This document shows, in pieces, positions 284 through 13,176 of a stretch of 64,000 bases of DNA. The translations under genes and the position numbers were made by a program. The DNA is from a virus, in the IMG/VR virus record IMGVR_UViG_3300006098_000001, one strand, 5' to 3'. The notes beneath the pieces were generated by a model, which did no database searches, was not told the origin of the DNA, and worked only from the letters and a program-made list of their open reading frames with translations. Position 1 is the stretch's first letter, and each line of letters starts with the position of its first letter.

Positions 284-466
284 TCACTCTCCTAAAATTT
301 CTTTTTCTTTTAACTGTTCTACTTTGTACCCAACATTTTCTAATGCTTCAATTGCCTCGGATAATGTCATTTCTATACCAATTCCAAATGACTCTCCCCA
401 TTTAATTAACTCTTGTTCATTAACTCGTTCACGAAATCCGTCGTGAGTGTCAATTAAAAATCTCAC
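284..466 (-). CDS. small hypothetical protein (track ORF 284..565, probably with a shorter true start)
   Basis: The 5' third of the track ORF overlaps the clamp-like gene. An internal GTG at 466 with GGAGA about 10 nt upstream is the likelier start. Confidence 0.35.
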   Translation of the reverse strand: MRFLIDTHDGFRERVNEQELIKWGESFGIGIEMTLSEAIEALENVGYKVEQLKEKEILGE

Positions 467-491
467 TCTAAAATCATCTCCAAATTTTCTT

Positions 492-1304
492 TTAGTGCAA
501 ACGAATAGGGCAAACCAAACCAAGCCCACCATTTTCTCGTGAAATTGTGAATGGACGGTAAGCATTTTGGTAGAATCTAAATGTTAGATTTTCTCGACTA
601 CTAAGATGTTGTAAACGTTGCTTTAATTTTTTCATGTTGAAATTAATTTCAAACTCACCTTCTACTTCTACATTAGTGACTGCGAGTGGGAACTCTAAAT
701 CTTTTCTCCCATCAAAGTATTCAAGTTTTACTACATTACCTTTTACCAAAAGTGCTCCTACATCAGACTTTTTTACTATTTCTTTCAACACTGGAAAAAT
801 TTCTTTTTGTTGTACATCAAACTTAACGGTTGCATCATTAAGATATGGTGTAACTCGTACTAAATCTGGATAACCAAACACACTTATATTTCCTCGGCTG
901 TCATCAATAAATTCTTCACCACCGCCAACGATTGAAATAATTCCCTTGTACTTTCCATCATTAAATTGAGGGTAAACTCCCAATGTCTTCCCGTATTTCG
1001 TCGGTGTCTTAGATAAATTCTTTGCAAACTTACCATCAATTAAAAATTCTTTACCAACTAACTCAGATGGAATACTTGCTGCCACGTGTGAACGTTCTAA
1101 TACATGGCTATCTGTTGCTTCTAAGATCAAGTTATTTTCTGTAATCCGAACATGAACAAATGTAAGGTTAGGACGATGGTCAGATGGCTTAGCAACAGCA
1201 GTCGCCACTTGACGTAACTTTTGTAAAAATTCTTTTGCGTTTACAAAAATACCGTTATCTTTATTAATAGTTGCTACATTGTTTAATAGTGTTTGTGTAT
1301 TCAT
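492..1304 (-). CDS. DnaN (DNA pol III beta)-like sliding clamp, short 270-aa form
   Basis: LILEATDSHVLER, GYPDLVRVTP and C-terminal GLVCPIRLH resemble the ATDGHRL, FPDYRRVIP and MPMRL signatures of bacterial beta clamps. Length is about two thirds of a canonical clamp. Confidence 0.5.
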   Translation of the reverse strand: MNTQTLLNNVATINKDNGIFVNAKEFLQKLRQVATAVAKPSDHRPNLTFVHVRITENNLILEATDSHVLERSHVAASIPSELVGKEFLIDGKFAKNLSKTPTKYGKTLGVYPQFNDGKYKGIISIVGGGEEFIDDSRGNISVFGYPDLVRVTPYLNDATVKFDVQQKEIFPVLKEIVKKSDVGALLVKGNVVKLEYFDGRKDLEFPLAVTNVEVEGEFEINFNMKKLKQRLQHLSSRENLTFRFYQNAYRPFTISRENGGLGLVCPIRLH

Positions 1305-1368
1305 GATAATTACCTCTTAATAGTGAATTTATTTTTAATAGTGTATTTGTTATGAGAATTTCTTTTGA

Positions 1369-1704
1369 TTAGTACGATAGCGGGTGTTTATACATATCGA
1401 TTGCCTTATCTTTCTTACCAGCCTTCCATGCGTTCATAATTTTTTCACCCATGCAGCTTTCCATGGTATGGAAATAATTGCAACTATAGAAATCAACATT
1501 ACTTTTTTCTTCCTCGGTCAAACTTTCAATTAACGCCTTATGGAATTCCTCGGTTTCACTCAAAGCAATTGCACATTTGGCTTCAATTATCGCTAACGGC
1601 TCGCCTAACTTATAAGCGACGGCTTTCTTCAAATGCAACTTTACTACCCTGTCTAATTCTTTCTTAAATGACTTTTCATCAAAATTTGCATCAAAATAAC
1701 TCAT
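1369..1704 (-). CDS. hypothetical early protein
   Basis: Track ORF in a tightly packed same-strand array; GGAGG upstream of the ATG. Confidence 0.6.
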   Translation of the reverse strand: MSYFDANFDEKSFKKELDRVVKLHLKKAVAYKLGEPLAIIEAKCAIALSETEEFHKALIESLTEEEKSNVDFYSCNYFHTMESCMGEKIMNAWKAGKKDKAIDMYKHPLSY

Positions 1705-1727
1705 TTTCTATTTCCTCCAAAAATTTT

Positions 1728-1922
1728 TTACTGTGATACCTTACAAATTCCACATTCCTGTAATGCTTCATTCAATTCTTCAATGCTTACTGGACTAATT
1801 CCAACACTTTCAATAAATTCCTGAACAGTTTCACCAATATGGTCAATTCCACCTGTAACCGTTGCGTCATCTTTTAATTCAATTCCCAAAGTCTTTTTTG
1901 ATAACATTTCTATTTCCTCCAA
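1728..1922 (-). CDS. hypothetical small acidic early protein
   Basis: Track ORF; GGAGG RBS; same-strand array. Confidence 0.55.
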   Translation of the reverse strand: MEEIEMLSKKTLGIELKDDATVTGGIDHIGETVQEFIESVGISPVSIEELNEALQECGICKVSQ

Positions 1923-1986
1923 TTCATAAATACCGTTATATCAACGTTTCTAGCATCTGAATTTCTTTATAAAATACATATTTTAT

Positions 1987-2256
1987 CTAATCTTCTGCTT
2001 CGCTCAGTAATTCGTTTAGATTAATTCCAAATGTTATCCTTGGTTTCAAAGCATCAATTTCTTGCTCCCAAATTTCGATACTATTATTTAATTCTTGCCC
2101 AAAATCTACTGCGCTATATTCGTTGAATTGTAGATATTGAACTAATAATTTCTTTGCCTTGTCTAACGTGGTTGCTGTAGTAATGTAATCAGTCGGTTCC
2201 TGCCAAAACTCTTGATGATCGACAATAACAACAACATAAACTTTTTTATTTTCCAT
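1987..2256 (-). CDS. hypothetical early protein
   Basis: Track ORF; GGAGG RBS. Confidence 0.6.
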   Translation of the reverse strand: MENKKVYVVVIVDHQEFWQEPTDYITTATTLDKAKKLLVQYLQFNEYSAVDFGQELNNSIEIWEQEIDALKPRITFGINLNELLSEAED

Positions 2257-2282
2257 CTTTATTTCCTCCGTTTATCTAATTT

Positions 2283-2555
2283 TTAATATTGGGCACCAAT
2301 CAACCACCATTTACTTCCGGGCAAATCTTCATCATCTCGCCAATTTTCTGACTGGCTATCAATAAATGAACGATAATCACTATCGTTTTCATATTGTTCC
2401 TGATCCACTTCCTCACAACCAATTGCTCCATATTCATACCCTAAATAACCAGCATTTACGATTTTGGTTGCTAATTCTTCGTCACCACTAACTTCCCACT
2501 GTACCAACCAATCGAATAAGGCTTTCTGGGTTTTCGTCCAAATTGATTTACTCAT
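2283..2555 (-). CDS. hypothetical acidic early protein
   Basis: Track ORF; GGAGG RBS. Confidence 0.6.
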   Translation of the reverse strand: MSKSIWTKTQKALFDWLVQWEVSGDEELATKIVNAGYLGYEYGAIGCEEVDQEQYENDSDYRSFIDSQSENWRDDEDLPGSKWWLIGAQY

Positions 2556-2682
2556 CTTAATTTCCTCCGTTTATTGAAAAATTCTTTTCGTATCTACCAA
2601 ATAGGAAAAACATATTTTTCTTTAACAATAGTTGTTTGACTAACTGGCATTCCTCCTGCAATACCAACTAATTCATGCTTTT

Positions 2683-2883
2683 CTACACTTTCACCATCTT
2701 CAAGTGGATAAAAGACTCAATCATTTCGTTTTCATCATAGAAACCTTCAAGCTCATTGCCGAACCAATCGCAAACACTGAAATACCAAGACTTACGAATT
2801 AGCTCACCATCAAAGTAGTCGTCTGGCTTAATCCATTTGAAAGTAACTGGATAGTTTTCTCGGCGATAGTGTAATTTCTTCAT
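2683..2883 (-). CDS. hypothetical early protein
   Basis: Track ORF; GAGGAG RBS. Confidence 0.55.
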   Translation of the reverse strand: MKKLHYRRENYPVTFKWIKPDDYFDGELIRKSWYFSVCDWFGNELEGFYDENEMIESFIHLKMVKV

Positions 2884-2910
2884 GATTATTTTCTCCTCAA
2901 TAATTTTTTC

Positions 2911-3135
2911 TTAGTGTTCGATACGTAGGCACCACCAGTAGTTATCAACTACCGCTTGATTGATTACGTCATACTCCCACAACTTGTTGAATGTAAAAAC
3001 TGCGATTGCGTCATTACATAAGCTCGCAATTCTAATACCCTTTTTGTCAGCTTTCGTTAAGACAAGTTCGATAAACTTATCAAGTTTCTTCTGGCTCGCT
3101 TTTGTCTTAAATTCATTCATTTTTATTTCCTCCAA
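2911..3135 (-). CDS. hypothetical early protein
   Basis: Track ORF; GGAGG RBS. Confidence 0.55.
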   Translation of the reverse strand: MEEIKMNEFKTKASQKKLDKFIELVLTKADKKGIRIASLCNDAIAVFTFNKLWEYDVINQAVVDNYWWCLRIEH

Positions 3136-3162
3136 GTGGTTAATTTATTTTCTGTTCAGTAA

Positions 3163-3510
3163 TTAATAGTGATAATTTCTTTTATTCTTAACGTTGACCA
3201 ATTCAATACCATCAGCACCTTCACCTTGTTGACCCACAATTTTTTGTGATTTATCAGTAGGAACAACAACGAGGTTGTAGTCACCATTGCCTTGGTCGTG
3301 GTACTCAACCTCGAAATTCTGAGTTTTAATAGTGTCGTCATTCTTGAGCGATAAATTTTTCTGTTTGTGACCAATAGTCTTACTAATAATTTTTGCCTCA
3401 CTGTGCATTGTGATTGCGTTTGAGTTGGCTTCATGCTTTGACATAATCCAGCCGGTAACGCTTACGATAGTTGTTAGGGTTAATACGATTAGTGCAATAT
3501 TTTTCTTCAT
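3163..3510 (-). CDS. secreted or membrane-anchored protein (N-terminal signal/anchor MKKNIALIVLTLTTIVSVTGW)
   Basis: Track ORF; GGAGG RBS; hydrophobic N-terminus. The overlapping ORF 3156..3434 in another frame has no RBS. Confidence 0.6.
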   Translation of the reverse strand: MKKNIALIVLTLTTIVSVTGWIMSKHEANSNAITMHSEAKIISKTIGHKQKNLSLKNDDTIKTQNFEVEYHDQGNGDYNLVVVPTDKSQKIVGQQGEGADGIELVNVKNKRNYHY

Positions 3511-3550
3511 GGTTATTTATCCTCCGAGTGGTTGTATTGTGTGGTTGTGG

Positions 3551-3907
3551 TTAGTCTTCTAATTCTTCGATAGCATCATCAATCGCTTGACTTAATACAT
3601 AGCAACGCAAGGAAACATCAATTGATTCATAGCAATCATCAAGCCACCATTCAGCAGTTTTTTGACGGTCCATAAACCCTTCATCAATTGCTTCGCGGAT
3701 TAAGTCCTTGTTATCATCAACGTATTCCTTGGCTTTGTTGGCGTTGAAAGTATATGATCCTGAGCCATTACCAGTTACAGAATCTTCGATCCAAAGTTGT
3801 TCGTTGAGTTCTTCACGATCAACCTCGTTGACATTGATTTCGTTGTCCTTGATGAAGTCGATTACATCGTTCTTAACATTTTCAAAGTAGTCATATTGTT
3901 GTGTCAT
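3551..3907 (-). CDS. hypothetical strongly acidic early protein
   Basis: Track ORF; GAGGGG RBS; very acidic composition, as is often seen in host-takeover or anti-restriction-type proteins (function not assigned). Confidence 0.6.
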   Translation of the reverse strand: MTQQYDYFENVKNDVIDFIKDNEINVNEVDREELNEQLWIEDSVTGNGSGSYTFNANKAKEYVDDNKDLIREAIDEGFMDRQKTAEWWLDDCYESIDVSLRCYVLSQAIDDAIEELED

Positions 3908-3970
3908 GATATTTACCCCTCAATTAATATATTTTAGTATTTTTGTTGTGATTAATAGTGTAAGATTACA

Positions 3971-4183
3971 TTAGTTTAGCAAGTTCGTCAATAGTACCCG
4001 TAGAAGTGGTAAGGTCACTGCAATAACAATAACTGTAATGAATACAGCTAAAATACTGTACTTCTTGAACCTGATTAGCCTTTCGCTATCTCGTTCTAAC
4101 TGCTTAATGTATTCAGGATCAACCAACTTGTAATCCTGTTCAGCGTATTTCTGTAGTTCCTTTTGTGACATCATAATTATCAA
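3971..4183 (-). CDS. small protein with C-terminal transmembrane helix
   Basis: Track ORF; hydrophobic SILAVFITVIVIAVTLPLL segment. Start is ambiguous (TTG 4183 or ATG 4174). First gene downstream of the long leader. Confidence 0.55.
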   Translation of the reverse strand: MIIMMSQKELQKYAEQDYKLVDPEYIKQLERDSERLIRFKKYSILAVFITVIVIAVTLPLLRVLLTNLLN

Positions 4184-4189
4184 AACCTT

Positions 4190-4790
4190 TCTAATTTGCT
4201 TCAGCGGTTATTATTAATCGCTTTATATAGAGTCTTATCGTGTTGATAAGGCTCTCTAAAAACAATTAATAGTGTCTTTTTCACTTTCACAGGCTTAAAC
4301 CAAGGAATATTAGCAAGTCCCTGCTGGTAGTATCACGGTGCCTTTATCTACTATTGATTAGGCGGTTGACGTGGAATCACCTACCCCTACCGTACCGGGT
4401 TATTTACCAACTTTTGATATTGCGGAGTTGTTCTCAGTTCTACTGAAAGATTGAACCGCCGTTATTTTGTTTTCAAAGTTCAGCATATGTTGGTTTGAAA
4501 GTGATTGAGTATGCTCTCGCTCACACTGTCCGCCACCTTAACTTTTAGCTTGAATACAGTTATGGCTTTATCCTGCCCTAGGTGATATATGGAATCCTAC
4601 ACCCTTGCGGTTTATCAAGTTATTATGTTAAGCCTGTTCAGCCCGTTGACTTTTGCGACTTGTTAACGTTTTTTGAATTGGTAACTTTCCAATTAGTTTG
4701 AACAATTTTATATAACATCGTAAGTTATATAAGGATAACCTTTTATTTCTTAATCGCTTCAAGGCTTGCGATTGCCTGCTCCTTTATCGT
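4190..4790 (-). ncRNA. about 600-nt GC-enriched untranslated leader / candidate large structured RNA
   Basis: No ORF of 60 aa or more in any frame between 4184 and 5192. Visibly higher GC than flanks. Lies directly downstream of four consensus minus-strand promoters. Many local hairpins (AATCGC/GCGATT, AATTGG/CCAATT, a GCAA-loop hairpin, an 11-bp AGAGCCTTATC/GATAAGACTCT stem) and possible long-range pairs (GGCGGTT 4362 with AACCGCC 4453). Confidence 0.3.
4709..4731. promoter_or_regulatory. operator-type palindrome TATAAC-N7-GTTATA without promoter hexamers
   Basis: Same half-sites as the operators embedded in the four upstream promoters. It lies inside the leader, so it may act as a roadblock. 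Confidence 0.45.
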
Positions 4791-4796
4791 GTCTTT

Positions 4797-4825
4797 ATTA
4801 TAACTTCCGATGTTATAATTGTCAA
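4797..4825 (-). promoter_or_regulatory. consensus sigma-A promoter P1 with embedded operator
   Basis: Minus strand reads TTGACA-17 nt-TATAAT. The palindrome TTATAAC-TTCCGAT-GTTATAA (4798-4818) fills the spacer and overlaps the -10. Confidence 0.65.
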
Positions 4826-4921
4826 GACTTAATTTTTTGAATTGTAGCGGTTGACCTTGAAGTCAAAGTTAGATACTCAAGTGAACTCACTTTCAATCCA
4901 TTTATTAAGTTTGTGCTTTTT

Positions 4922-4951
4922 ATTATAACTTCGTAAGTTATAAATTGTCAA
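4922..4951 (-). promoter_or_regulatory. consensus promoter P2 with embedded operator
   Basis: Minus strand TTGACA-18 nt-TATAAT; operator TTATAAC-N7-GTTATAA at 4923-4943. Confidence 0.65.
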
Positions 4952-5037
4952 GAAGTAAATTTGATTAATTTTTAATCACCTAGGCTAGTTCGATGACTGC
5001 TCTTTATTGTGATTGTCCTAATCAACTTTACGGCTTT

Positions 5038-5066
5038 ATTATAACTTCCGATGTTATAAATGTCAA
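5038..5066 (-). promoter_or_regulatory. consensus promoter P3 with embedded operator
   Basis: Minus strand TTGACA-17 nt-TATAAT; operator at 5039-5059. Confidence 0.65.
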
Positions 5067-5128
5067 TACCTTTTTCAAATTATTTTTGATACCTGGTATT
5101 TATTGCCGTTGTCCTTTTGACGATTCCA

Positions 5129-5156
5129 ATTATAACATCGCAAGTTATAAAGTCAA
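5129..5156 (-). promoter_or_regulatory. promoter P4 with embedded operator
   Basis: Minus strand TTGACT-16 nt-TATAAT; operator TTATAAC-ATCGCAA-GTTATAA at 5130-5150. Confidence 0.6.
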
Positions 5157-5164
5157 CTATTTTT

Positions 5165-5200
5165 TGTAAAAAAATAAGAGTAGTTATAATAACTACTCTT
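5165..5200 (-). terminator. rho-independent terminator of gene 5193..5423
   Basis: Perfect 10-bp stem AAGAGTAGTT/AACTACTCTT followed on the minus strand by ATTTTTTT. Confidence 0.65.
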
Positions 5201-5423
5201 GTAATTCTTTTAGGCGCTTATCTAATTCAATTTTAAACTCTTTCAAATCACTGATATAAGTATCTCTTATATCTATATTAGATTTTATTAATTGATATAA
5301 TCTTGTTTTAGATGATGGGCGAATAAAGCCCCCCGCCTCACTCTTACGCTTCCAATAGTAAGCTTTATCTGGATTAGCTTTTTCATAATTCTTTTTTGCT
5401 TGTTTTTGTGCTTCACTAACCAA
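5193..5423 (-). CDS. small basic protein, candidate operator-binding regulator (paralog of 6701..6898)
   Basis: Track ORF; AGGAGG RBS. Its own promoter carries a sixth copy of the operator. It shares the KxYxE...KKSxAxxF...RLKEL pattern with 6701..6898. Confidence 0.5.
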   Translation of the reverse strand: MVSEAQKQAKKNYEKANPDKAYYWKRKSEAGGFIRPSSKTRLYQLIKSNIDIRDTYISDLKEFKIELDKRLKELQE

Positions 5424-5445
5424 GACTTCACCTCCTTTTTACTTT

Positions 5446-5477
5446 ATAACATGGTAAGTTATAAGTATTATACCATA
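5446..5477 (-). promoter_or_regulatory. extended -10 promoter (TGGTATAAT) plus operator over the transcription start
   Basis: Minus strand TGGTATAAT at 5477-5469. TTATAAC-ATGGTAA-GTTATAA at 5446-5466 lies just downstream of the -10. Confidence 0.5.
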
Positions 5478-5508
5478 CTCAACAGAAATAAAACTACACA
5501 ATCAGTAA

Positions 5509-5537
5509 TTGACTATTACAATACTTAAGTTTAAAAT
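5509..5537 (+). promoter_or_regulatory. promoter of micro-ORF 5570..5668
   Basis: TTGACT-17 nt-TAAAAT. Confidence 0.55.
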
Positions 5538-5569
5538 TGTTATATCTCCTTGAGTAAGGAGGTGACAAC

Positions 5570-5668
5570 ATGAAACATAATGAAAAAGAAAAGAAACAAC
5601 CCTATAAGGCTTTTTACTTTGAGTGTAGCCTAATAAAGTTATTTCTTAAAATCATCATTATAAAGTAG
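5570..5668 (+). CDS. 32-aa peptide MKHNEKEKKQPYKAFYFECSLIKLFLKIIIIK (toxin-like micro-ORF)
   Basis: Strong RBS AAGGAGGTG, own promoter and terminator. A clear paralog lies on the opposite strand at 5863..5958. Below the track's length cutoff. Confidence 0.45.
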   Translation: MKHNEKEKKQPYKAFYFECSLIKLFLKIIIIK

Positions 5669-5678
5669 TGTAATCACT

Positions 5679-5723
5679 TCCCTGAGTTGTTGTGTGACGG
5701 CTCAACCCAGGGAGATTTTTATT
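5679..5723 (+). terminator. terminator of micro-ORF 5570..5668
   Basis: 11-bp stem TCCCTGAGTTG/CAACCCAGGGA (one mismatch) followed by a T run. Confidence 0.5.
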
Positions 5724-5731
5724 ACAATTAC

Positions 5732-5740
5732 ATTATATCA
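5732..5740 (-). promoter_or_regulatory. extended -10 (TGaTATAAT) for an antisense RNA covering the 3' end of 5570..5668
   Basis: Minus strand reads TGATATAAT immediately beyond the terminator, pointing back into the micro-ORF. Confidence 0.4.
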
Positions 5741-5766
5741 CAATTTATTGTGGTATTATATATTTG

Positions 5767-5795
5767 TTGATATGATATTACTAGATTGTTATAAT
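5767..5795 (+). promoter_or_regulatory. strong promoter for an antisense RNA covering the 3' end of 5863..5958
   Basis: TTGATA-17 nt-TATAAT with TG extension at 5787-5788. Confidence 0.6.
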
Positions 5796-5801
5796 ATAGA
5801 T

Positions 5802-5848
5802 ACAAGAAAACCCCTAAAGGTTGTTAACTTGTCCGTTAACCTTTAGGG
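5802..5848 (-). terminator. terminator of micro-ORF 5863..5958
   Basis: Long hairpin CCCCTAAAGGTTGTTAAC/GTTAACCTTTAGGG followed on the minus strand by TTTTCTTG. There is no T run on the plus strand, so the plus-strand antisense RNA can read through. Confidence 0.5.
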
Positions 5849-5862
5849 CGGTGAGTTATTCA

Positions 5863-5958
5863 CTACTTAATAATAAAGAATTTAAAGAATAATCTTAAAA
5901 GGCTGAACTCGCAATATACAACCTTAAAAGATTGTTCTTTTTTCTTTTTATTGTTCAT
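5863..5958 (-). CDS. 31-aa peptide MNNKKKKEQSFKVVYCEFSLLRLFFKFFIIK (paralog of 5570..5668)
   Basis: Hand translation checked base by base; RBS AGGGGGTGGG upstream of the ATG at 5958; alignable along its full length with the other peptide. Confidence 0.45.
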   Translation of the reverse strand: MNNKKKKEQSFKVVYCEFSLLRLFFKFFIIK

Positions 5959-6242
5959 GTTCCCACCCCCTTTCCTTAAGGGGTTAAAATAATTTAAACA
6001 TCGTTATTTCTGAAAGTCAATAATTGAAAAAGAAAAAGCCAAAACGCAAAAGTAAAAAACGTTAAGGCTTAAAGGCTTAAAAGCTTACATATTGAGGGAA
6101 CGTGGCGCCGTTCCCTTTTTGTATAATTATCATATCATACTTACAACCCTAACAGAATAGAAAAATAACACCCCTTTATTTTTCTATATAAGGAAGAAAA
6201 AACATAATAAAAAAACGATAAAGAAAAAAATAAATATACATG

Positions 6243-6273
6243 TTGACAACATGAAGAATTGTGTTATTATAAT
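6243..6273 (+). promoter_or_regulatory. strong promoter
   Basis: TTGACA-16 nt-TATTAT with TG extension (alternatively TATAAT at 6268). Confidence 0.55.
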
Positions 6274-6345
6274 ATACGTAAGCTATTAATATAGTTTACA
6301 AGGCGACACACTAACAACAAATAATAAAGGTTTGAGGTGGTCAAA

Positions 6346-6486
6346 TTGTATTCTATATTGTTGCATGCTGCAACCTTGTTTAGTTTGGTAAGTGGTGGAA
6401 TTCTGGCGATAGTAACATCAATCGAAAAAGTTCTTATCATAAAAGAAAAAGCCCACAAGTCAGATAAGGACAAGGGGCAAAAATAA
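6346..6486 (+). CDS. 46-aa small membrane protein (MYSILLHAATLFSLVSGGILAIVTSIEKV...)
   Basis: TTG start 5 nt after GAGGTGG; consensus promoter upstream; clean terminator downstream; one predicted TM helix. It competes with the unsupported track ORF 6267..6473 (minus). Confidence 0.45.
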   Translation: MYSILLHAATLFSLVSGGILAIVTSIEKVLIIKEKAHKSDKDKGQK

Positions 6487-6505
6487 CTTACATTTATGAA
6501 TATTT

Positions 6506-6533
6506 GGGAAGTGTTGCGACCACTTCCCTTTTT
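6506..6533 (+). terminator. rho-independent terminator
   Basis: GGGAAGTG/CACTTCCC stem followed by TTTTT. Confidence 0.65.
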
Positions 6534-6573
6534 CTACAGTGTTATAATAACATAATAAAAAGGGTGTGACAAT

Positions 6574-6681
6574 ATGAAATGGATCATATTAATTGGTCTA
6601 TATCTTTTCGGGTTTGTTTGTCTAACGGTTGCGATCAAAAAGGCGAGAAAAATATATAATACTTTAAAGCATAATAAATAA
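6574..6681 (+). CDS. 35-aa hydrophobic peptide MKWIILIGLYLFGFVCLTVAIKKARKIYNTLKHNK
   Basis: ATG-initiated micro-ORF with one TM-like segment and a basic tail; weak RBS (AGGGTG). Confidence 0.35.
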   Translation: MKWIILIGLYLFGFVCLTVAIKKARKIYNTLKHNK

Positions 6682-6700
6682 TTAAAATAAATATAGAATT

Positions 6701-6898
6701 ATGGAAAACAAACAAAACAAAACAAGTAAAGCAAAATTACAAGCAAATAAACGCTATCAAGAAAGACATAAAAAAGAAGTTTATCGCAATCAGAAAAAAT
6801 CTAGGGCGAAAAATTTTCTATTGAATGATGCAAGGATTGACGAACTAGAATTTTTTTCTGAATTAATTTCTGAAAGATTGAAAGAATTAAAAAAATAA
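6701..6898 (+). CDS. small basic protein, paralog of 5193..5423
   Basis: Track ORF; the shared KRYQE...KKSRAKNF...RLKEL pattern aligns with the other protein. Confidence 0.55.
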   Translation: MENKQNKTSKAKLQANKRYQERHKKEVYRNQKKSRAKNFLLNDARIDELEFFSELISERLKELKK

Positions 6899-6949
6899 TA
6901 ATAGTAATTAGGGTAATGCGTTAGTGTTTAGCGTGTTGCCCTTTTGCAT

Positions 6950-7590
6950 TGTGGTTATATGATAACGCTTACATAGTGATGTATAGCAGTGTATAGGTAT
7001 TACAGTGATATGTATATAGTAGCGTGCATAGTGTTGTTATGATAGTGATATATAGTAGTGTTATTTGTGTCTGTGTATAGATGTATATAGGTTAGTGAGT
7101 GAGTAGTGTTACATAGTGATATGCATAGTGAAGTAATATGATAGTGTAGTGATGTATATAATGTATTGAGTTAGTAACTGATTTACGTTTGTAGATATTA
7201 GATTGTCAAGGCTGAGAGTGAGTGCGGTGTATGGGGTGTAGTGTGATTAGTATGTTTGATATATGATAATGTTTTCATATGTTATTGTAATGATATAGTA
7301 AGTGAGTAGTATATTGATATGTATGTATTGAGTGAGTAAGTAGGCGGATTGCGTGAGTGTGTTTGGTTAGTTAGTTATTATATTAGGGGTGTGTATTAAG
7401 TTACGTTTGTAAATTTTAAATTGTCAAGAGTGAATTTTTATGGTCTGGGTTTATTATTGTGTTGGTTGTGATATGTATTAGTTAGATTTTATTTATTAGG
7501 GGTGTGGGTGAATTATTGGGCGGTGTTAGGTTAGGTAAACGGTTATTATATTAATTTATTGGGTGTTTGGTGTGGTGTGTGAGTATGTGT
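6950..7590. repeat. C-depleted (G/T/A-only) arm of a mirror-composition region with degenerate TAGTGAT/GTATAT-type repeats
   Basis: By hand count, about 23 C in the 600 nt of 6961-7560. No ORF. Two copies of TTACGTTTGTA-N-ATTGTCAAG (7184-7210, 7401-7429). Confidence 0.7.
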
Positions 7591-7617
7591 GAACATTTGT
7601 TCATAGCAGATTATAAT
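7589..7617 (+). promoter_or_regulatory. candidate LexA-controlled promoter
   Basis: GTGAAC-17 nt-TATAAT, with the Cheo box 7590-7603 covering the -35 and spacer. Confidence 0.4.
7590..7603. promoter_or_regulatory. LexA (Cheo/SOS) box tGAACATTTGTTCa
   Basis: Perfect GAAC-N4-GTTC core of the Firmicutes LexA operator. Confidence 0.55.
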
Positions 7618-7623
7618 ATATGA

Positions 7624-7749
7624 AATTTTGTTCATATGAATTAGTGAAAAGTACCCTACCCAGCCCACCAAAATAAATATATTAAGTTTACAACTGTAGC
7701 CCCTTATAAATAAAATTACCCCTTATCAAAAGATAGGGGCTTTCTTTTT
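7624..7749 (+). ncRNA. candidate short SOS-controlled transcript (about 125 nt)
   Basis: Runs from the promoter at 7589-7617 to the terminator at 7719-7749. It contains only an 18-codon ORF with no RBS. Confidence 0.3.
7719..7749 (+). terminator. rho-independent terminator
   Basis: CCCCTTATC-AAAA-GATAGGGG followed by CTTTCTTTTT. Confidence 0.65.
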
Positions 7750-8051
7750 CGATATTAAAATATTCTTGTAACCGTTTACACATAACAACAACTATTATTG
7801 TGTCTTAAATTTGCAAATAGGCGGGGGTTATTTTACTCAAAACGCCTTAATTTTTAGGGAAAATTTTAGGGTAGTTGCTTCACTCACACACCACAAAATT
7901 TTTTCCATTCACCCCATTTCTCGCACCCTATCACCCCTCAAATATCCCAATAAATTAATACCAAATTTAACCTTTTCAAAACTATGAAAATATCTTTCAT
8001 AATCTTTCAACACAATATCCCTACCCATTCCTCTCACCCTTTCCCATTCAA

Positions 8052-8087
8052 CTATAAATAAAGAGCCTAGGAATTACCCTAGACTCT
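8052..8087 (-). terminator. terminator of gene 8086..8412
   Basis: AGAGCCTAGG/CCTAGACTCT stem (one mismatch) followed on the minus strand by TTTATTTAT. Confidence 0.45.
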
Positions 8088-8412
8088 AATTCATCTCATT
8101 ATTAATATACTCTTCTAACCCAACTCTGGTCTCGTCATCTAAATTGGCAACATACTCCCTATATTTACTCAAATAGCCCTCATTAATACTACTAATTACA
8201 TATAATATATACCCTTCGTATAGACCATCTGGACACTTTAATAATCGCTGCATCAGTCTCATTAAATAGTAATACTGTTCATCATAACCATCATTCATAT
8301 ATTTATTCTCAAATATATAATATGCAGTCCAAATAATATTATCGTCCCTATTTTCTAAACTGGATATACCCCATAGTTCCTTAATTATAGTATCTAGTTT
8401 AATAATCTCCAC
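8086..8412 (-). CDS. orphan 108-aa protein under a LexA-box promoter
   Basis: Track ORF with GTG start and GGGGA RBS. It is the only sizeable ORF in 6.9-9.6 kb, and its coding strand shares the C-poor composition of the arm. Confidence 0.55.
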   Translation of the reverse strand: MEIIKLDTIIKELWGISSLENRDDNIIWTAYYIFENKYMNDGYDEQYYYLMRLMQRLLKCPDGLYEGYILYVISSINEGYLSKYREYVANLDDETRVGLEEYINNEMN

Positions 8413-8450
8413 TGTCGTTTCCCCATTCTTATATTAAACGTATGTTCCCT

Positions 8451-8459
8451 TGTTATAAT
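8451..8459 (+). promoter_or_regulatory. extended -10 element TGtTATAAT facing rightwards
   Basis: Read directly; the LexA box starts 4 nt downstream. No clear -35. Confidence 0.35.
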
Positions 8460-8483
8460 ACACGAACGAATGTTCTTTATCAA
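8455..8483 (-). promoter_or_regulatory. promoter of 8086..8412 with a LexA box in its spacer
   Basis: Minus strand TTGATA-17 nt-TATTAT. The 17-nt spacer is AAGAACATTCGTTCGTG, which is the Cheo box. Confidence 0.55.
8463..8476. promoter_or_regulatory. LexA (Cheo/SOS) box CGAACGAATGTTCT
   Basis: Matches 13 of 14 positions of CGAACRNRYGTTYC, with a perfect GAAC-N4-GTTC core. Confidence 0.6.
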
Positions 8484-9561
8484 GTATTATCAGTAAATAG
8501 ATACATATATCGCTTTATAGTACATTTTTATATTTATGTTCTTAATGCCATATACCTAATTATTCTGATTTATGAAAATATTGCGCACCCAAAATAGCCA
8601 TTTTTTGAAACAAAGAAAATTGCCTCTCGCTTTCATAACAATTATTTTCATAAAATTACTCAAAACTACCCTATTTTGCACCCAATAAAATCTTCGAAAC
8701 TCCCTATGAGGAATTCCTCAATTCACAAACTTTCGACTTCTACACAAACAACATTACTGAATTTAATTATACTTTGTGAATTTTTCTTCACTAATTCAAG
8801 AATTCAATTCTAAATAACTAAAATATGAACAAAAATTGTTATGAAAACATCGTTTTATGCATACCTAACTTATTTACGAAATAATCTGTCTTATTGTACA
8901 AAACTAAAAATTCATCATTCTTAATATTTCGCACCCTACTACTCATGTAACTAACCCTATCGAAACTCCCTATTTTTCATTTTGATATTTTTACTCAAAT
9001 CACTGAATTTTTAACCAAAAAAAATGAACTAATACCAAATCCTATTTAATAGGATCTAGTAGTACTTTTTTATAATTATTATTCACTTGAGACATTTATT
9101 AGTACATCTTCGATAATACAAGGGGTTTCAAACATCTAATTCCAGAAAATTTCACAAACTTAAAAAGGGTGCGGGGTATTTTTACTCTAATAACCTATAA
9201 TTATATGTTTCGTATTGGTTCATTATTTCCACTCAGACTATTTTTCATAATTCCGCCGCCATCTATCCATTGTAATAGGAAGAAAACCTCTATTTTCTAT
9301 CACTGCTTTTATTGTCGCTTGTGAAGTCATCAAAAAATGCTGTTTCATTTTTATGTAACTATTCTCGCCTTCTTTTTCTCTTTAAACACAGCCAAACACC
9401 AACGTAGAATGGAGTTAACGGGTCATAAATCAAAATTACATTAATTTATCTAAATCAGCTCTTAGCCCCATTATTCATTGTTCGTTTTGATTATTTATGA
9501 GCAATAATTATGTAGGTCAATTATTAAAACAGCTATTCCACAAGTTCCTTTAAATAAAAAA

Positions 9562-9590
9562 CAGCGACAGTAAATACCACCGCTGAAATA
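9562..9590 (-). terminator. weak terminator downstream of the toxin-like micro-ORF
   Basis: CAGCG/CGCTG stem followed on the minus strand by TTTTTTATTT. Confidence 0.35.
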
Positions 9591-9598
9591 ATTACGGA

Positions 9599-9688
9599 TT
9601 ACTTACATAACCACTTACTAATCTTTTTAATTAAATGTTTAACGTGCTTATTAGGCACAATCAATATTATTAGACACCAATGCGTCAT
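9599..9688 (-). CDS. 29-aa Fst/Ldr-like type I toxin candidate MTHWCLIILIVPNKHVKHLIKKISKWLCK
   Basis: Hand translation. The AGGAGG RBS is locked in a perfect hairpin AAAGGAG-TTGC-CTCCTTT. Hydrophobic N-half and basic C-half. It lies next to the partition genes. Confidence 0.45.
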   Translation of the reverse strand: MTHWCLIILIVPNKHVKHLIKKISKWLCK

Positions 9689-9750
9689 AAAGGAGTTGCC
9701 TCCTTTCTGCACTAGTCGGGTTTCCTAAGCCCGCTCAAATGTGCCTAATT

Positions 9751-9759
9751 ATTGTATCA
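9751..9759 (-). promoter_or_regulatory. extended -10 (TGaTACAAT) for the toxin-like mRNA
   Basis: Read on the minus strand about 60 nt upstream of the ATG. Confidence 0.4.
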
Positions 9760-9770
9760 TATTTATTTTA

Positions 9771-9779
9771 TGCTATAAT
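9771..9779 (+). promoter_or_regulatory. extended -10 (TGcTATAAT) for a divergent sRNA
   Basis: Read directly; back to back with the toxin promoter. Confidence 0.45.
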
Positions 9780-9785
9780 ATAGTT

Positions 9786-9873
9786 ATCAATATTATTAGG
9801 CCGTGTGATGTGGGTGCTTCCTAGCTCACGCATTGGTTTAACGTGGGGCGCCCTGATAGGCGCTCTTTTTTTT
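9786..9873 (+). ncRNA. candidate antitoxin sRNA (about 88 nt)
   Basis: Bounded by the promoter at 9771-9779 and a terminator (GGGCGCC/GGCGCTC stem plus T8, 9846-9873). Its 5' ATCAATATTATTAG (9786-9799) repeats 9660-9673, so it is complementary to codons 6-10 of the toxin mRNA. Confidence 0.4.
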
Positions 9874-9882
9874 ATTTAAAAT

Positions 9883-9922
9883 AAAAGCCACAGTAACTAG
9901 TTTATCTGTTACTGTGGCTTTT
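9883..9922. terminator. bidirectional terminator at the end of the parM-parR operon
   Basis: Perfect 15-bp stem AAAAGCCACAGTAAC/GTTACTGTGGCTTTT with A and T runs on both sides. Confidence 0.7.
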
Positions 9923-9983
9923 CACATTTTATATTACTTTATATGTTTAATTCCGATTAAATCATATATAATCAGATTAAGTA

Positions 9984-10373
9984 TTACGATAACATGTCTA
10001 AATTAGGCCTGTTTTTCAATTTAGAACTCAAAGAACTGTCATCAGTTTTAGAGTCATTATCGTTTTTCTTATTTCCAATTCTTGTCCTTAATTTGCGCTT
10101 GGGCTTTTCTTCAACATCGACATCATCATTCTCTTCTACCGACGTCTTTTCTTCTAGTTTTGAAACTGAGTTAATAGTACCTAACTGTCCATCTAAGCTT
10201 GCACTATCTAAAATAGCTTGGATAAGATCACCAGTTCCATATTTCCTAACTACCATTTCTAATGCCCTAATAGCAGCCGGAGAAAATTGTGACTGGTTTT
10301 TAGACCATTCTGCAACTTTTGAATCCTCGGGAATAAGGATAGTTTTTCTAATCATTTTCGCCATAAAAATCAC
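9984..10373 (-). CDS. ParR-like centromere-binding adaptor (N-terminal RHH-like segment, charged tail)
   Basis: Track ORF immediately downstream of the actin-like ATPase gene. Size and the KTILIPEDSKVAEW beta-strand-like N-terminus fit ParR. The call rests mainly on position. Confidence 0.5.
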   Translation of the reverse strand: MIFMAKMIRKTILIPEDSKVAEWSKNQSQFSPAAIRALEMVVRKYGTGDLIQAILDSASLDGQLGTINSVSKLEEKTSVEENDDVDVEEKPKRKLRTRIGNKKNDNDSKTDDSSLSSKLKNRPNLDMLS

Positions 10374-10378
10374 ACTCT

Positions 10379-11590
10379 CTATAAGGCTTCAACAATTACT
10401 TGTAATCCTAATTCATTTAAATATTGTGCATATTCCTTATCAATCCAAATTACTGGAACATCATATCCACCACTGAAGCTCTTAAGTTTTTCGTTCAATA
10501 CTTCGCGAAGATTACTCTCATCTAGCATTGGAATGGAACCACCACCATATACGTAAACAAGTTCAGTATCCTTAGCGATACGCATTGTTTGACTAACTGT
10601 ATCGATAATCTTGTCAGCTAATGGTTCTAATTGGTCGTAAACAACTTGACGTACTTTATCTTGGCGAGCTCGACGCAATGGACTGACCTTTTCAGATAAG
10701 AAACTCTGTAATTGTGAACGTTCCTCAAAATTCATTTGTTGATCTTGAAGAACACGCACTGCATCTTGTAATACATTTCCGTATCCTTGTGGTAACGAAG
10801 CTGATGCTGCTGGATTAGCTTTACCGTTAATAATTGCTACTACATCAGTAGTCCCTTCTCCGATATCAATTCCAAGTACATTTCGTGAATTAATAAGGTC
10901 GTCAGCTCCAACTTCATCCTTCATTTCTGAATAGTTCTTATCAAAGTCTTCCTTAATTTTATCTGTTAATCCATCATAATCGGAGGAAATAAGCATTTGG
11001 GCTGTTTCACCTTCTAATGCAACATATACTTTATTAAATTCAATGGTTACATTAATTGGATCCTTAAAGTTATGGAAAGTTACTGTATGCGTACTACCCA
11101 TGTAACGTTCTTTGTAACGATCTTTTGCATTATTAACCTTACCTTCTGAAATAGGTAACGCAGTCGCCATATTAACTTTTACCTTTAGAGTCTCCTTTAA
11201 GTCTTGTCCAGCTTCATATGCTTCTTTTACTTTCTTCCCAGCTATCAAACTTAAAGTAAGAATAATTGCTAAATCTGTTTCTGATTTACCAGTAAAGTCA
11301 TTAACATCAAAAGCCCTCATAGATAGACCACTGTCGATCGCAGCATTACCAATTAAAAATCTTCCAGAGGTTTTTACTGCATTACTTGACACACTAACGT
11401 CCATGTTATTAAGAAAGTTCTTCATATATGTATCTTGATCTTGTTTAGAATCAAATTCCATAGGAGCTTGTACATCTTGTGGACGTTCTGCTGCTATAAC
11501 TGACGGAAACTTAATATTTTCACCATCAACATTTGCTTTTACAGAACCATATCCCAAATCATTTGCAACCTTCATAATCTTCTCAACCAT
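10379..11590 (-). CDS. parM: actin-like segregation ATPase (ParM/Alp family)
   Basis: N-terminal NDLGYGSVKA phosphate-1 motif, GIDIGEGTTDV phosphate-2 motif and YVYGGGS adenosine motif. About 400 aa. Confidence 0.7.
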   Translation of the reverse strand: MVEKIMKVANDLGYGSVKANVDGENIKFPSVIAAERPQDVQAPMEFDSKQDQDTYMKNFLNNMDVSVSSNAVKTSGRFLIGNAAIDSGLSMRAFDVNDFTGKSETDLAIILTLSLIAGKKVKEAYEAGQDLKETLKVKVNMATALPISEGKVNNAKDRYKERYMGSTHTVTFHNFKDPINVTIEFNKVYVALEGETAQMLISSDYDGLTDKIKEDFDKNYSEMKDEVGADDLINSRNVLGIDIGEGTTDVVAIINGKANPAASASLPQGYGNVLQDAVRVLQDQQMNFEERSQLQSFLSEKVSPLRRARQDKVRQVVYDQLEPLADKIIDTVSQTMRIAKDTELVYVYGGGSIPMLDESNLREVLNEKLKSFSGGYDVPVIWIDKEYAQYLNELGLQVIVEAL

Positions 11591-11756
11591 TATTTCTACC
11601 TCCGATTTATAACATAATCATATTATATCATACTTAATACAAATTTAAGTGTAACTAAATAAGATATTTTATTTTTTTATATGATATAATCTTCTTTTTG
11701 ATTACCACAATGTTAATAATACTATGTATTTAACATAATGTAAATAACATTTAACA

Positions 11757-11767
11757 CTTTTAGAAAG
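11757..11767. repeat. parS-like site (reverse complement of GTGTTAAATGT)
   Basis: The inverted copy of AAAGTGTTAAATGT, also found at 13060-13073, lies downstream of the parA operon and upstream of parM. Confidence 0.35.
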
Positions 11768-11811
11768 TTTTATGAAGGCAAATAAAAAACGCTTTGGTAG
11801 CGTTTCATAGT

Positions 11812-12141
11812 TTACTTAAGGCTTTTAGACATGTAGTCCTTTTGCTCTAATATATTATACATTCTATCAAATCGAGTTTTTTCACTCTCGTTTAATTCAG
11901 CAATTTCACTCTCAATCATATGTTCGACAACTGCCTTTGCATTTTTTGCAACACCAAGATTAATTAAGGCAGAAACCTTATTACGAATATGATTGTCAAC
12001 ACGTATATTAACTGGAAAGGACACTTCTTTATTGTCTGTTAAGATGTCTTCTTTTTTTGTTATCTCCTTGAATGATGGCTTTGCATCTACCTCACTATTT
12101 TTCAAGGAATTCTTTGATTTAGCTGGCTTTGATATTGCCAT
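11812..12141 (-). CDS. small RHH (ParG/CopG-like) centromere-binding partner of ParA
   Basis: Track ORF overlapping the parA stop by 1 nt (TAATG). The segment FPVNIRVDNHIRNKVSALINLG looks like a ribbon-helix-helix. Confidence 0.55.
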   Translation of the reverse strand: MAISKPAKSKNSLKNSEVDAKPSFKEITKKEDILTDNKEVSFPVNIRVDNHIRNKVSALINLGVAKNAKAVVEHMIESEIAELNESEKTRFDRMYNILEQKDYMSKSLK

Positions 12142-12953
12142 TATTCATGTGCCTCCTTAATACGCCCTAAAAGTTCAACTGCAACTTCTTTATAAACATT
12201 GAGAGTTTTTTTGTCCCATGCATCTCTATCTTCTGTAATACCTGTGACGTCATAATTTTTAGCTCTTTCCATAATCCTAATATGACTATTAAAAACGTCA
12301 GCTCCCCATTCTTCTCTTGATTTTTCCAAAATCAATTGATCGACTTTAGCATTGTCTTTAGATAAAACAGGAACAACTGCTAATACTTCTGTGTCAGCAA
12401 TATACTCATCAATTATGTCGTCTTGAATATATTCAATAAAGTCTTTTGCATCGTCAAAAGCTCTTTGTTGAGTTTGAAGAACAATTACTAATTCGTCACA
12501 AGCATACAAAGCTGTATCATTTTGTAAACTCAACGTAGGACTAACATCTATAAAAATGTAATCATACTTGTCCTTTATATCACTTAGCTTATTTTTAAAG
12601 GATGCGACACGCTCCTTTTCATTAAGATAAGCATGTTCAAGATATCTAGGATATAGATAAAAATCACTAGCAGTTGGGACAAGATAAAGATTATCCATTA
12701 CCTGAACTGTAACATTATCCAAACTTTCATTATCTTTAATAGCGCTCATTAGCGTCTTGTTAAATGATAAAATCTCATCAGACTTTTGACTCTTTGTCTT
12801 TACCATCAATGTTGTCAAATCTGCCTGTGGATCAAAATCAATTAATAATACCTTATTCCCCATTTTTGCCAAACTATACGCTACCAATGCAGTGGTCGTT
12901 GTCTTACCAACACCACCCTTTTGATTACACATTGAAATTACTTTTGCACTCAT
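12141..12953 (-). CDS. parA: ParA/Soj-type partition ATPase (type Ib size)
   Basis: Deviant Walker A NQKGGVGKTTT and DFDPQ motif; 270 aa. Confidence 0.8.
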   Translation of the reverse strand: MSAKVISMCNQKGGVGKTTTTALVAYSLAKMGNKVLLIDFDPQADLTTLMVKTKSQKSDEILSFNKTLMSAIKDNESLDNVTVQVMDNLYLVPTASDFYLYPRYLEHAYLNEKERVASFKNKLSDIKDKYDYIFIDVSPTLSLQNDTALYACDELVIVLQTQQRAFDDAKDFIEYIQDDIIDEYIADTEVLAVVPVLSKDNAKVDQLILEKSREEWGADVFNSHIRIMERAKNYDVTGITEDRDAWDKKTLNVYKEVAVELLGRIKEAHE

Positions 12954-13007
12954 TTCAATTCCACCTCACCTATTTATTAAGTACTATAATATCAAACCTT
13001 TCGGATT

Positions 13008-13074
13008 GTGTTAAGTGTAATATGTAATGTATATTATATGAATCGCATAAAACTACACAAAAGTGTTAAATGTG
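13008..13074. repeat. parS-like direct repeats GTGTTAARTGT upstream of parA
   Basis: GTGTTAAGTGT at 13008 and GTGTTAAATGT at 13063, plus a related AATGTGAAAT at 13090. Confidence 0.4.
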
Positions 13075-13129
13075 ATTTATATAATGCATAATGTGAAATA
13101 TATTATTAATTATAAATTATGTATAAAAC

Positions 13130-13176
13130 ATATCCCATTATATATAATGTTTTTAATACTATACATAATGGGATAT
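13130..13176. repeat. 12-bp perfect inverted repeat ATATCCCATTAT / ATAATGGGATAT (23-bp spacer)
   Basis: Read directly in the divergent parA-repA intergenic region; candidate operator. Confidence 0.5.

Follow-up and report, generated by a model that had tools for sequence, protein, structure and literature searches.

What do four tandem, near-perfect promoters with one and the same palindrome built into each of them control, and what in turn controls them? A cluster of this kind is found in a 64,000-nucleotide stretch of viral DNA (IMG/VR virus record IMGVR_UViG_3300006098_000001; "the window" hereinafter means this 64-kb stretch as a whole), which we assign to an SPbeta-like phage-plasmid of Limosilactobacillus reuteri. 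The promoter array is accompanied by a short gene coding for a 76-residue (aa) protein homologous to the Aca13 domain of the anti-CRISPR (Acr) protein AcrIIA32, and this protein is probably the autoregulated repressor of the promoters. We consider it likely that the array is the control region heading an early gene train, which would be expressed as an establishment and anti-restriction burst and then be shut off by the repressor. The array comprises the following elements:

4710..4730, unstranded: leader operator (O-L), ATATAAC-N7-GTTATAT
4797..4825, minus strand: promoter P1, TTGACA-17-TATAAT, 12/12 match to the consensus; operator at 4798-4818
4922..4951, minus strand: promoter P2, TTGACA-18-TATAAT, 12/12 match; operator at 4923-4943
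5038..5066, minus strand: promoter P3, TTGACA-17-TATAAT, 12/12 match; operator at 5039-5059
5129..5156, minus strand: promoter P4, TTGACT-16-TATAAT with a TG; operator at 5130-5150
5444..5464, unstranded: autoregulatory operator (O-auto), TTATAAC-ATGGTAA-GTTATAA

We scanned the window for TTATAAC-N7-GTTATAA, allowing up to two mismatches and using 100 dinucleotide shuffles as the control, and obtained seven matches as against 0.89 expected, a count that none of the 100 shuffles reached. Six operator matches start at 4710, 4798, 4923, 5039, 5130 and 5444, with five of the six being perfect, and the operator is confined to 4710-5464 within the 64 kb. A de novo count of palindromes over the whole window (half-sites of 6-7 nt, spacers of 0-11 nt) singled out the same element: besides one trivial A/T motif, TATAAC-N7-GTTATA is the sole palindrome that recurs at least three times. 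The promoter scan, for its part, recovered four promoters on the minus strand, each agreeing with the consensus at 11 or 12 of the 12 positions. Sites matching at 11/12 or better number only seven in the whole window, both strands counted, and all three of the 12/12 sites on either strand lie inside the array. The -10 hexamers of P1-P4 begin at 4797, 4922, 5038 and 5129; the operator begins 1 nt inside the -10 and therefore spans five nucleotides of it along with nearly the entire spacer. Both scans thus confirm the first-pass annotation of this locus, which had described four minus-strand promoters with the palindrome filling the spacer and the -10 up to its fifth nucleotide; the fifth site that it placed in the leader (4710) and the sixth on the start of the 76-aa gene (5444) were also recovered. 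The sixth site lies 2 nt downstream of an extended -10 element and therefore covers the expected start site of that gene; an equivalent site is found 33-40 nt upstream of the gene in most relatives. The distance from O-L to the P1 operator is exactly 88 bp in all relatives of the window allele that possess O-L, while the -35 of P4 is degenerate in some relatives (TTGATT, TTGCAT).

The gene next to the array is set apart from it by a terminator and has a promoter of its own:

5169..5200, minus strand: intrinsic terminator with an 11-bp stem and a T-run (hairpin and T-run at 5176-5200), parting the 76-aa gene from the array; kept in the related loci L001 and L005
5193..5423, minus strand: gene for the 76-aa protein, the proposed repressor; TTG start at 5423, ribosome-binding site AAGGAGGTGA
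5467..5475, minus strand: extended -10 promoter of the 76-aa gene, TGgTATAAT with a weak -35, as read from the sequence

The motif TGnTA(T/A)AAT just upstream of the autoregulatory site is retained in L001, L005 and L006-L009. The 76-aa protein is basic (isoelectric point, pI, of 9.6), and its AlphaFold2 (AF2) model, with a predicted local distance difference test score (pLDDT) of 96.8, consists of four helices. Foldseek found no PDB match for this model, and neither the 76-aa protein nor its 65-aa paralogue in the window matched any Pfam family, the helix-turn-helix (HTH) families included. Both belong to PHROG 2277 (phrog_2277), a group of unknown function, and the family of the 76-aa protein is small, with 45 representatives at 50% identity among 1.84 billion proteins. 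A tblastn search of phages with the 76-aa protein returned no match, and a back-translated search of one-genome-per-species contigs returned no relative.

Profile-based comparisons, however, did place this family. An hmmsearch of the PDB with a 36-member family profile recovered one solved chain, 8ye6_B "A32" (residues 91-141, E 4.9e-5), and hhalign of the family profile against AcrIIA32 residues 91-141 gave a probability of 97.5% with an E-value of 6.5e-12 over 50 columns. This chain is AcrIIA32, and the matched segment is its Aca13 domain. Aca13, the C-terminal domain of AcrIIA32, is a helical non-HTH repressor as established by electrophoretic mobility shift and reporter assays, and it binds an inverted repeat between the -35 and the -10 of promoters that lie on either side of its gene (Song et al., 2025; PMC12282945). 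In addition to the homology to this domain, we observed in our system a small all-helical protein devoid of an HTH and a repeat in the promoter spacer; the register of this repeat is the same across six operator alleles and in distant members of the family. The first-pass annotation had put forward the 76-aa protein as an autoregulated repressor, a proposal that receives computational support from the Aca13 homology and from the coordinate changes of operator and protein allele considered below.

A second member of the Aca13 family is encoded nearby:

6701..6898, plus strand: gene for the 65-aa repressor paralogue, which is nearer to the Aca13 domain in length

It is 31% identical to the AcrIIA32 C-terminal domain in a gapless alignment (E 5e-6), and, like that domain, it is without the middle insertion. 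Its gene is preceded by a small open reading frame (ORF) for a membrane peptide and is found at the equivalent place in relatives (e.g. L001 5201-5401); the de novo palindrome count yielded no recurrent operator for it in the window. Neither this paralogue (6701-6898) nor the approximately 600-nt leader discussed below had figured in the first-pass annotation.

The comparison of related loci also bears on the binding factor. The scaffold of gene, terminator, one to five tandem promoters and leader site recurs in seven L. reuteri plasmids and several metagenomic relatives. Contigs with proteins 64-89% identical to the 76-aa protein keep the autoregulatory site, the four promoters with their operators and the leader site, and the start-to-start spacings in the close relatives are 309-319, 91-102, 114-116, 122-125 and exactly 88 bp; one relative (79-81% identity) has three promoters and no leader site. 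In a three-locus alignment the array and the inter-promoter DNA are at least as conserved as the gene itself. The operator, on the other hand, comes in at least six sequences across the relatives, each of which changes with the adjacent protein allele:

Window group: proteins 60-89% identical to each other and 64-89% to the window's protein; operator TATAAC-N7(WTCGKAW)-GTTATA
FN041 and pAN417A: protein 56% identical to the window's (78% to each other); operator TATAAC-CACACA-GTTATA (N6); 4 and 5 promoters
pLr03: protein 53% identical to the window's; operator TATAAC-TTTSAAA-GTTATA; 3 promoters
YLR001: protein 49% identical to the window's; operator TATAAAC-N4-GTTTATA; 1 promoter with a 15-nt spacer
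IMAUJBR3: protein 33% identical to the window's; operator TATAGCGTTCACGCTATA; 3 promoters
p53608_1: protein 52% identical to the window's; operator ATATAGACTTAAGKCTATAT; 3 promoters

At each locus the promoter and leader sites share one operator type, as does the site on the gene's own promoter where one is found; at up to two mismatches no such own-promoter site of the repressor gene was detected in IMAUJBR3, which has an IS30 element just upstream, or in p53608_1. The right half-site supplies the start of the -10 in every allele. The proteins of YLR001 and p53608_1 are 72% identical, yet their operators differ, and the inter-promoter and leader DNA is recognizably homologous across the L. 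reuteri plasmids despite the operator differences. This concerted switching of operator and protein on homologous DNA points to the adjacent protein as the binding factor and is hard to explain otherwise. Taken together, sequence and comparison establish the anatomy of the array and its conservation, show the 76-aa protein to be homologous to a repressor proven to work in such a design, and demonstrate that protein and operator co-vary.

Distant members of the family (26-31% identity) lie directly after an AcrVA2-like gene at prophage ends, and the promoter of their operon carries TTGTACCG-N4-CGGTACAAT, which overlaps the -10. A scan of IMG/VR with the bare palindrome was uninformative, returning scattered single chance matches only, and the combined promoter-plus-operator pattern returned mostly chance matches and a few true relatives from IMG/VR and the metagenomes. 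Two observations made on the metagenomic material concern rearrangements of the array. In a metatranscriptome contig from mouse gut (runs X30 and X32; window 4705-4833), P1 and the leader operator are replaced by 39 nt, which carry TTGACA-N17-TATATA with an operator of the YLR001 type, TTATAAACGTAAATTTATA, while the upstream promoter of the window type is retained; the array in this contig would thus be of mixed allele. Further, a 33-nt repeat found in the window at 7183-7215 and 7401-7433 contains a minus-strand TTGACA, and in one metagenomic relative (a loose end of run X26) this repeat is fused directly to the array at 4954, which suggests recombination between promoter-like units.

The genes that the array faces on the minus strand form a compact unit, which includes the ArdA slot:

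284..4183, minus strand: operon of 12 closely spaced genes (gaps of 23-127 nt)
3551-3907, minus strand: gene for a 118-aa acidic protein in the ArdA slot; AF2 model with a pLDDT of 92.8

The operon codes for a 70-aa protein with a hydrophobic C-terminal segment, the acidic 118-aa protein, further small acidic proteins and a sliding-clamp-like 270-aa protein; four of its proteins are very acidic, with a pI of 4.05-4.3 and a net charge of -10 to -22. No promoter match above 9/12 is present on the minus strand from 4200 to 1, and there is no internal terminator on this strand from 4200 to about 530, the sole terminator-like site being at the distal end (about 509-530). Together with the tight packing of the 12 genes, this lends computational support to the earlier proposal that the four promoters feed one early operon. 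Five plasmids and the related loci L188/L189 have the gene for the anti-restriction protein ArdA in second place behind the array, following one for a small membrane protein. In the window and in YLR001 this slot is occupied by the 118-aa protein, which has a net charge of -22. Its family has more than 1000 members in Firmicute phages and plasmids, some of them fused to a DpnD/PcfM-like domain; an anti-restriction role for it would be a guess that draws only on where its gene lies and how the protein is charged. The train of same-strand genes extends for approximately 36 kb in YLR001 and includes toxin-antitoxin pairs, a DnaB-like helicase and nucleotide-metabolism genes. A plausible terminator is seen there approximately 11 kb downstream of the array, ahead of the replication genes, and the 20 kb scanned downstream of the array have no other cluster of consensus promoters.

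These features can be combined into the following scheme, in which we infer the binding itself, how strong each promoter is and whether it is used, the timing of events and the counter-defence function of the window's cargo. The 76-aa protein of the Aca13 family, presumably as a dimer, would bind the 21-bp palindrome. Given that the palindrome fills the spacer and overlaps the -10, the bound repressor would exclude RNA polymerase from all four promoters at once. The fifth site, which follows the last promoter at a distance of 88 bp, could serve as a roadblock or a looping partner, whereas the sixth, over the repressor's own start, would provide negative autoregulation. Upon entry of the DNA into a cell devoid of the repressor, the four near-perfect sigma-A promoters would be expected to fire together, yielding a long structured leader and an operon of small, often very acidic proteins that continues towards replication genes; in the relatives, the anti-restriction protein ArdA would be among the products of this burst. 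Meanwhile, the repressor would be made from its own, weaker extended -10 promoter, and its accumulation would shut off the array, which would then be held at a low set-point in the plasmid-prophage state.

The leader that the burst would produce is itself unusual. Approximately 600 nt without a credible ORF separate P1 from the first gene (4183), of which about 480 nt lie beyond a conserved hairpin and the CAAAAAAC that follows it:

4677..4693, minus strand: conserved 5' leader hairpin AATTGG-AAAGTTA-CCAATT, then CAAAAAAC; one compensatory G-C to A-U change
4485..4658, minus strand: structured part of the leader, with long-range stems around a variable core, ending at the conserved GCTGAACTTTGAAAAC (4485-4500)

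Conservation among the relatives ends at about 4667, beyond which mosaic cassettes start. The cassette slot is bounded by AATTCAAAAAAC and CTGAACTTTGAAAAC, which are 196-213 nt apart (window about 4667 and 4485-4500; L001:6745-6999; L005:6728-6972). It holds unrelated GC-rich inserts of approximately 200 nt, of which there are three mutually unrelated types with both boundaries conserved. An alignment of six homologues (A4) with the window's insert type, 70-100% identical (window 4485-4700, L149:14137-14377, L188:2468-2709, L200:5562-5801, L201:5962-6211 and L206:4061-4302), supports a fold of 37 pairs, in which 93% of the cells are paired as against 34-40% when the partners are slid. Compensatory changes occur in 7 of these pairs, a value that was reached by 15 of 500 shuffles, and the presence of several invariant G-U pairs indicates that the fold is specific to the transcribed (minus) strand. 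The folding z-score of the single sequence is -2.1. We found nothing credible in Rfam, either for the window at the gathering threshold or for 3900-10000 at E<=1, and a gapped-pattern search for further copies of the leader RNA recovered none. The covariation, being drawn from a small sample with the structure derived from the same alignment, is suggestive; the leader is a candidate new structured RNA.

As to the nature of the element, the proteins encoded in the window include a terminase, which is 45% identical to its counterpart in the Lysinibacillus phage LC76P1 and 41% to those of SPbeta-group phages, and some of very large size (2387 and 3029 aa). On the YLR001 plasmid, genes corresponding to such large ones bear the annotations phage specificity protein and tail tape measure protein. 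Plasmid maintenance functions stand beside these SPbeta-like structural genes, with two partition systems (ParA with a DUF5388 protein, and an actin with a 129-aa protein) and a RepA_N initiator within 9984-14779:

10379-11590: Alp7A/ParM-like actin
11812-12953: ParA and DUF5388 protein
13694-14779: RepA_N initiator

On either side of the ParA operon lies one arm of a 41-nt inverted repeat (11734-11774 and 13046-13086). At the DNA level, positions 3500-7000 match eight L. reuteri plasmids of 52-139 kb; the plasmid records examined are typed rep_cluster_2483, except for p53608_1, which has no replicon type. The complete YLR001 plasmid (132.6 kb) likewise combines terminase, tape measure and holin with repA and ParM, and a related IMG/VR contig of 117 kb is circular, with the assembly break inside the promoter array. 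Since phage and plasmid genes occur side by side and the plasmid matches are from L. reuteri, we take the element to be an SPbeta-like phage-plasmid of that species. DNA that is identical or nearly so is common in mouse gut metagenomes. A megablast search of the phage collection with 3500-7500 returned no match, and a tRNA search found none.

Several other features of the window deserve a mention. Just upstream of the terminase gene, an ORF at 18673-19632 (plus strand) with two LAGLIDADG endonuclease domains may code for a homing endonuclease. The region 6900-8060 has no ORFs: 740 bp of it (6900-7640) are nearly free of C, with a GC skew of up to +0.8, whereas 7640-8060 is G-poor, with a skew of about -0.6, and degenerate and imperfect inverted repeats span the switch. 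It may be an origin or some other cis-acting region. Finally, a convergent pair of paralogous 31-32-aa peptides is encoded at 5570-5668 (plus strand) and about 5863-5958 (minus strand), each with a ribosome-binding site and a promoter, and with a long hairpin at about 5809-5848 between them; with their charged N-termini and hydrophobic tails (MKHNEKEKKQPYKAFYFECSLIKLFLKIIIIK, MNNKKKKEQSFKVVYCEFSLLRLFFKFFIIK), they look like type I toxin candidates.

Certain observations weigh against a repressed establishment and anti-restriction burst, or at least against parts of it. The residues K92, W99, R107 and S111 of AcrIIA32 are essential for repression (PMC12282945), and these align with Q6, Y13, A21 and K25 of the 76-aa protein, such that only the aromatic position is conservatively kept. 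These four positions may be specificity residues; the differences fit a different operator, yet they weaken the transfer of the contact details of AcrIIA32 to the 76-aa protein. The YLR001 scaffold manages with a single promoter with a 15-nt spacer, from which it follows that four promoters are not essential to the design. As to the cargo, the window itself has no known Acr or Ard gene, and the 118-aa protein in the ArdA slot returned nothing from a PDB sequence search, PADLOC, Foldseek against the PDB or BFVD, and no family match. The RNA runs, moreover, are assembled contigs of low depth, which show presence and give no 5' ends.

A different reading of the same anatomy is a true lysis-lysogeny switch, with the 76-aa protein as a CI-like maintenance repressor, the array as the main early lytic promoter in the manner of PL/PR, and the alleles as heteroimmune groups. 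The first-pass annotation had leaned in this direction in calling the arrangement an immunity design. At least six matched repressor-operator alleles on a homologous scaffold are indeed the classic pattern of an immunity region, the repressor is predicted to be autoregulated, and the YLR001 array heads a train of about 36 kb with a DnaB-like helicase and replication genes, with no comparable promoter cluster in the 20 kb scanned downstream. However, the operator is present at only one locus in 64 kb, and a divergent cro-like gene, an antirepressor and a cleavage-prone domain are all lacking. Members of the family have been described as anti-defence-associated regulators, and ArdA is the cargo known so far. 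Moreover, the module is retained in plasmids of 58-84 kb (compared by size), one of them with five promoters, and the plausible terminator in YLR001 about 11 kb downstream precedes the replication genes. An immunity design is therefore not established, and a lysis-lysogeny switch appears to us unlikely, if still worth serious attention; a burst followed by shut-off of establishment and anti-restriction genes fits these facts better than a CI-like switch. Even so, the repressor-operator pair resembles an immunity region in its allelic diversity. It is conceivable, as a speculation to which we would give slightly less credence than to that switch, that repressor and operators make up a cassette of diversifying specificity, represented by at least six alleles within one species, and that this cassette mediates exclusion between competing L. 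reuteri phage-plasmids: the resident repressor would keep silent the operon for anti-restriction and establishment that an invader of the same allele brings in, host restriction would destroy that invader, and escape would select for new pairs and multiplied promoters. If true, such a cassette would confer immunity by disarming the invader's counter-defence rather than by repressing lytic genes.

The remaining explanations dispute the roles of the palindromes, the 76-aa protein or the operon rather than the purpose of the switch. Something else might bind the palindromes, for instance the 65-aa paralogue, a protein of the host or a master repressor encoded outside the window, with the 76-aa protein being otherwise employed; a second Aca13-like protein is in fact encoded only 1.3 kb away. 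Yet the operators switch with the allele of the adjacent gene while the flanking DNA is homologous, one site sits on the promoter of the 76-aa gene itself, and a host protein could not explain six specificities in one species, all of which makes this very improbable. Still less credible is that the palindromes are a plasmid centromere or replication iterons with incidental promoter matches. The two partition systems and RepA_N initiator within 9 kb and the regular spacing of the sites (88-125 bp) would favour it, but in all alleles the sites keep the same register inside 11-12/12 promoters and form part of the -10, the par and rep operons have upstream regions of their own with other repeats, and the 76-aa protein belongs to a repressor family. 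In view of the fixed promoter register and the allele-matched operators, we rejected both the centromere/iteron and the host-factor readings. A further possibility, which is compatible with the repressed burst, is that the structured leader of about 600 nt is the main product, namely a functional non-coding RNA (e.g. anti-defence or regulatory), with the genes expressed by secondary read-through. The length of the stretch between P1 and the first gene lacking a credible ORF, the covariation for long-range stems specific to the transcribed strand, and the unrelated GC-rich inserts of about 200 nt in the same bounded slot of other relatives speak in its favour. Against it stand the limited basis of six sequences, with the structure taken from the same alignment, a folding z-score of only -2.1, and the lack of a terminator after the leader, of an Rfam match and of further homologues. 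We regard a leader RNA as the main product as rather improbable, though less so than another binding factor.

With regard to novelty, the repressor family and the repeat-in-spacer design are already known from Streptococcus (PMC12282945). We found no description in the literature searched of an array of three to five consensus promoters with a separate autoregulated gene, a leader site and a structured leader, nor of a phage-plasmid context with ArdA or of at least six matched alleles in one species; literature searches on the phage-plasmid in L. reuteri and on Aca13 brought up nothing relevant beyond PMC12282945. If the repressed burst is correct, it would extend Aca13, which has so far been studied only beside Streptococcus anti-CRISPR genes, to a role in gating the early arm of large phage-plasmids as a whole, in a species that is both a gut symbiont and a widely used probiotic. 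It would also reveal an unusual architecture of three to five perfect tandem promoters, each with a built-in operator. The at least six natural orthogonal repressor-operator pairs on one scaffold would furnish probes of how the Aca13 fold reads DNA and could be usable as gene-control parts in lactic acid bacteria, and the small acidic proteins and the structured leader would become candidate counter-defence factors.

How, then, does this locus compare with known regulatory systems? With the immunity regions of lambdoid and other temperate phages it shares matched pairs that diversify on a conserved scaffold, an autoregulated repressor and multiple operators. Unlike these regions, it lacks an HTH CI/Cro pair and a divergent PRM/PR, shows no obvious means of induction, and has a single unidirectional operator array; the sole divergent promoter (5509-5537, plus strand) lies 45 nt beyond the nearest operator and precedes a 32-aa hydrophobic peptide. 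An analogy may also be drawn to the acr-aca operons, whose strong acr promoters are reportedly damped by an Aca repressor: in both cases a very strong early promoter would drive a counter-defence burst at entry that its own repressor shuts off. The classical Aca is an HTH protein whose gene follows acr within a one-promoter operon, whereas here the repressor is encoded upstream on a separate transcript and there are several tandem promoters. In phage T7, the early promoters A1, A2 and A3 precede gene 0.3, which codes for Ocr, a DNA-mimic anti-restriction protein; T7 is virulent, and these promoters are without a repressor operator. The possible likeness lies in at least three tandem host-polymerase promoters, strong in T7 and predicted to be so here, spaced approximately 100-125 bp apart at the head of an early region. 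The differences are that an operator is built into every promoter and that the anti-restriction gene is found in the relatives, the window's slot being taken by an uncharacterised acidic protein.

Closer to the present lineage is SPbeta MrpR (YopR), a protein of about 325 aa with a tyrosine-recombinase fold that binds the 15-bp SPBRE at around ten dispersed promoters (Kohm et al., 2023; PMC10516654). The two systems have in common a related lineage (terminase 41% identical) and a repeated element in early promoters, and they differ in that ours has a 76-aa four-helix protein with its sites in one cluster at 4710-5464. The nearest counterparts are the Aca13 of AcrIIA32 and the stand-alone Aca13 of Streptococcus prophages (Song et al., 2022 and 2025; PMC8934645, PMC12282945). 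In contrast to these, the 76-aa gene stands alone with its own autoregulated promoter, facing three to five tandem promoters and a leader site. Its carrier is a phage-plasmid of approximately 120-140 kb, whose known cargo is ArdA and unknown acidic proteins rather than known Acrs; the palindrome is of 19-21 bp and comes in several allelic versions, and three of the four AcrIIA32-critical residues differ. The shared features are a homologous small helical non-HTH protein, a repeat between the -35 and the -10, and promoters on both sides of the gene; distant members of the 76-aa family, moreover, adjoin an AcrVA2-like gene.

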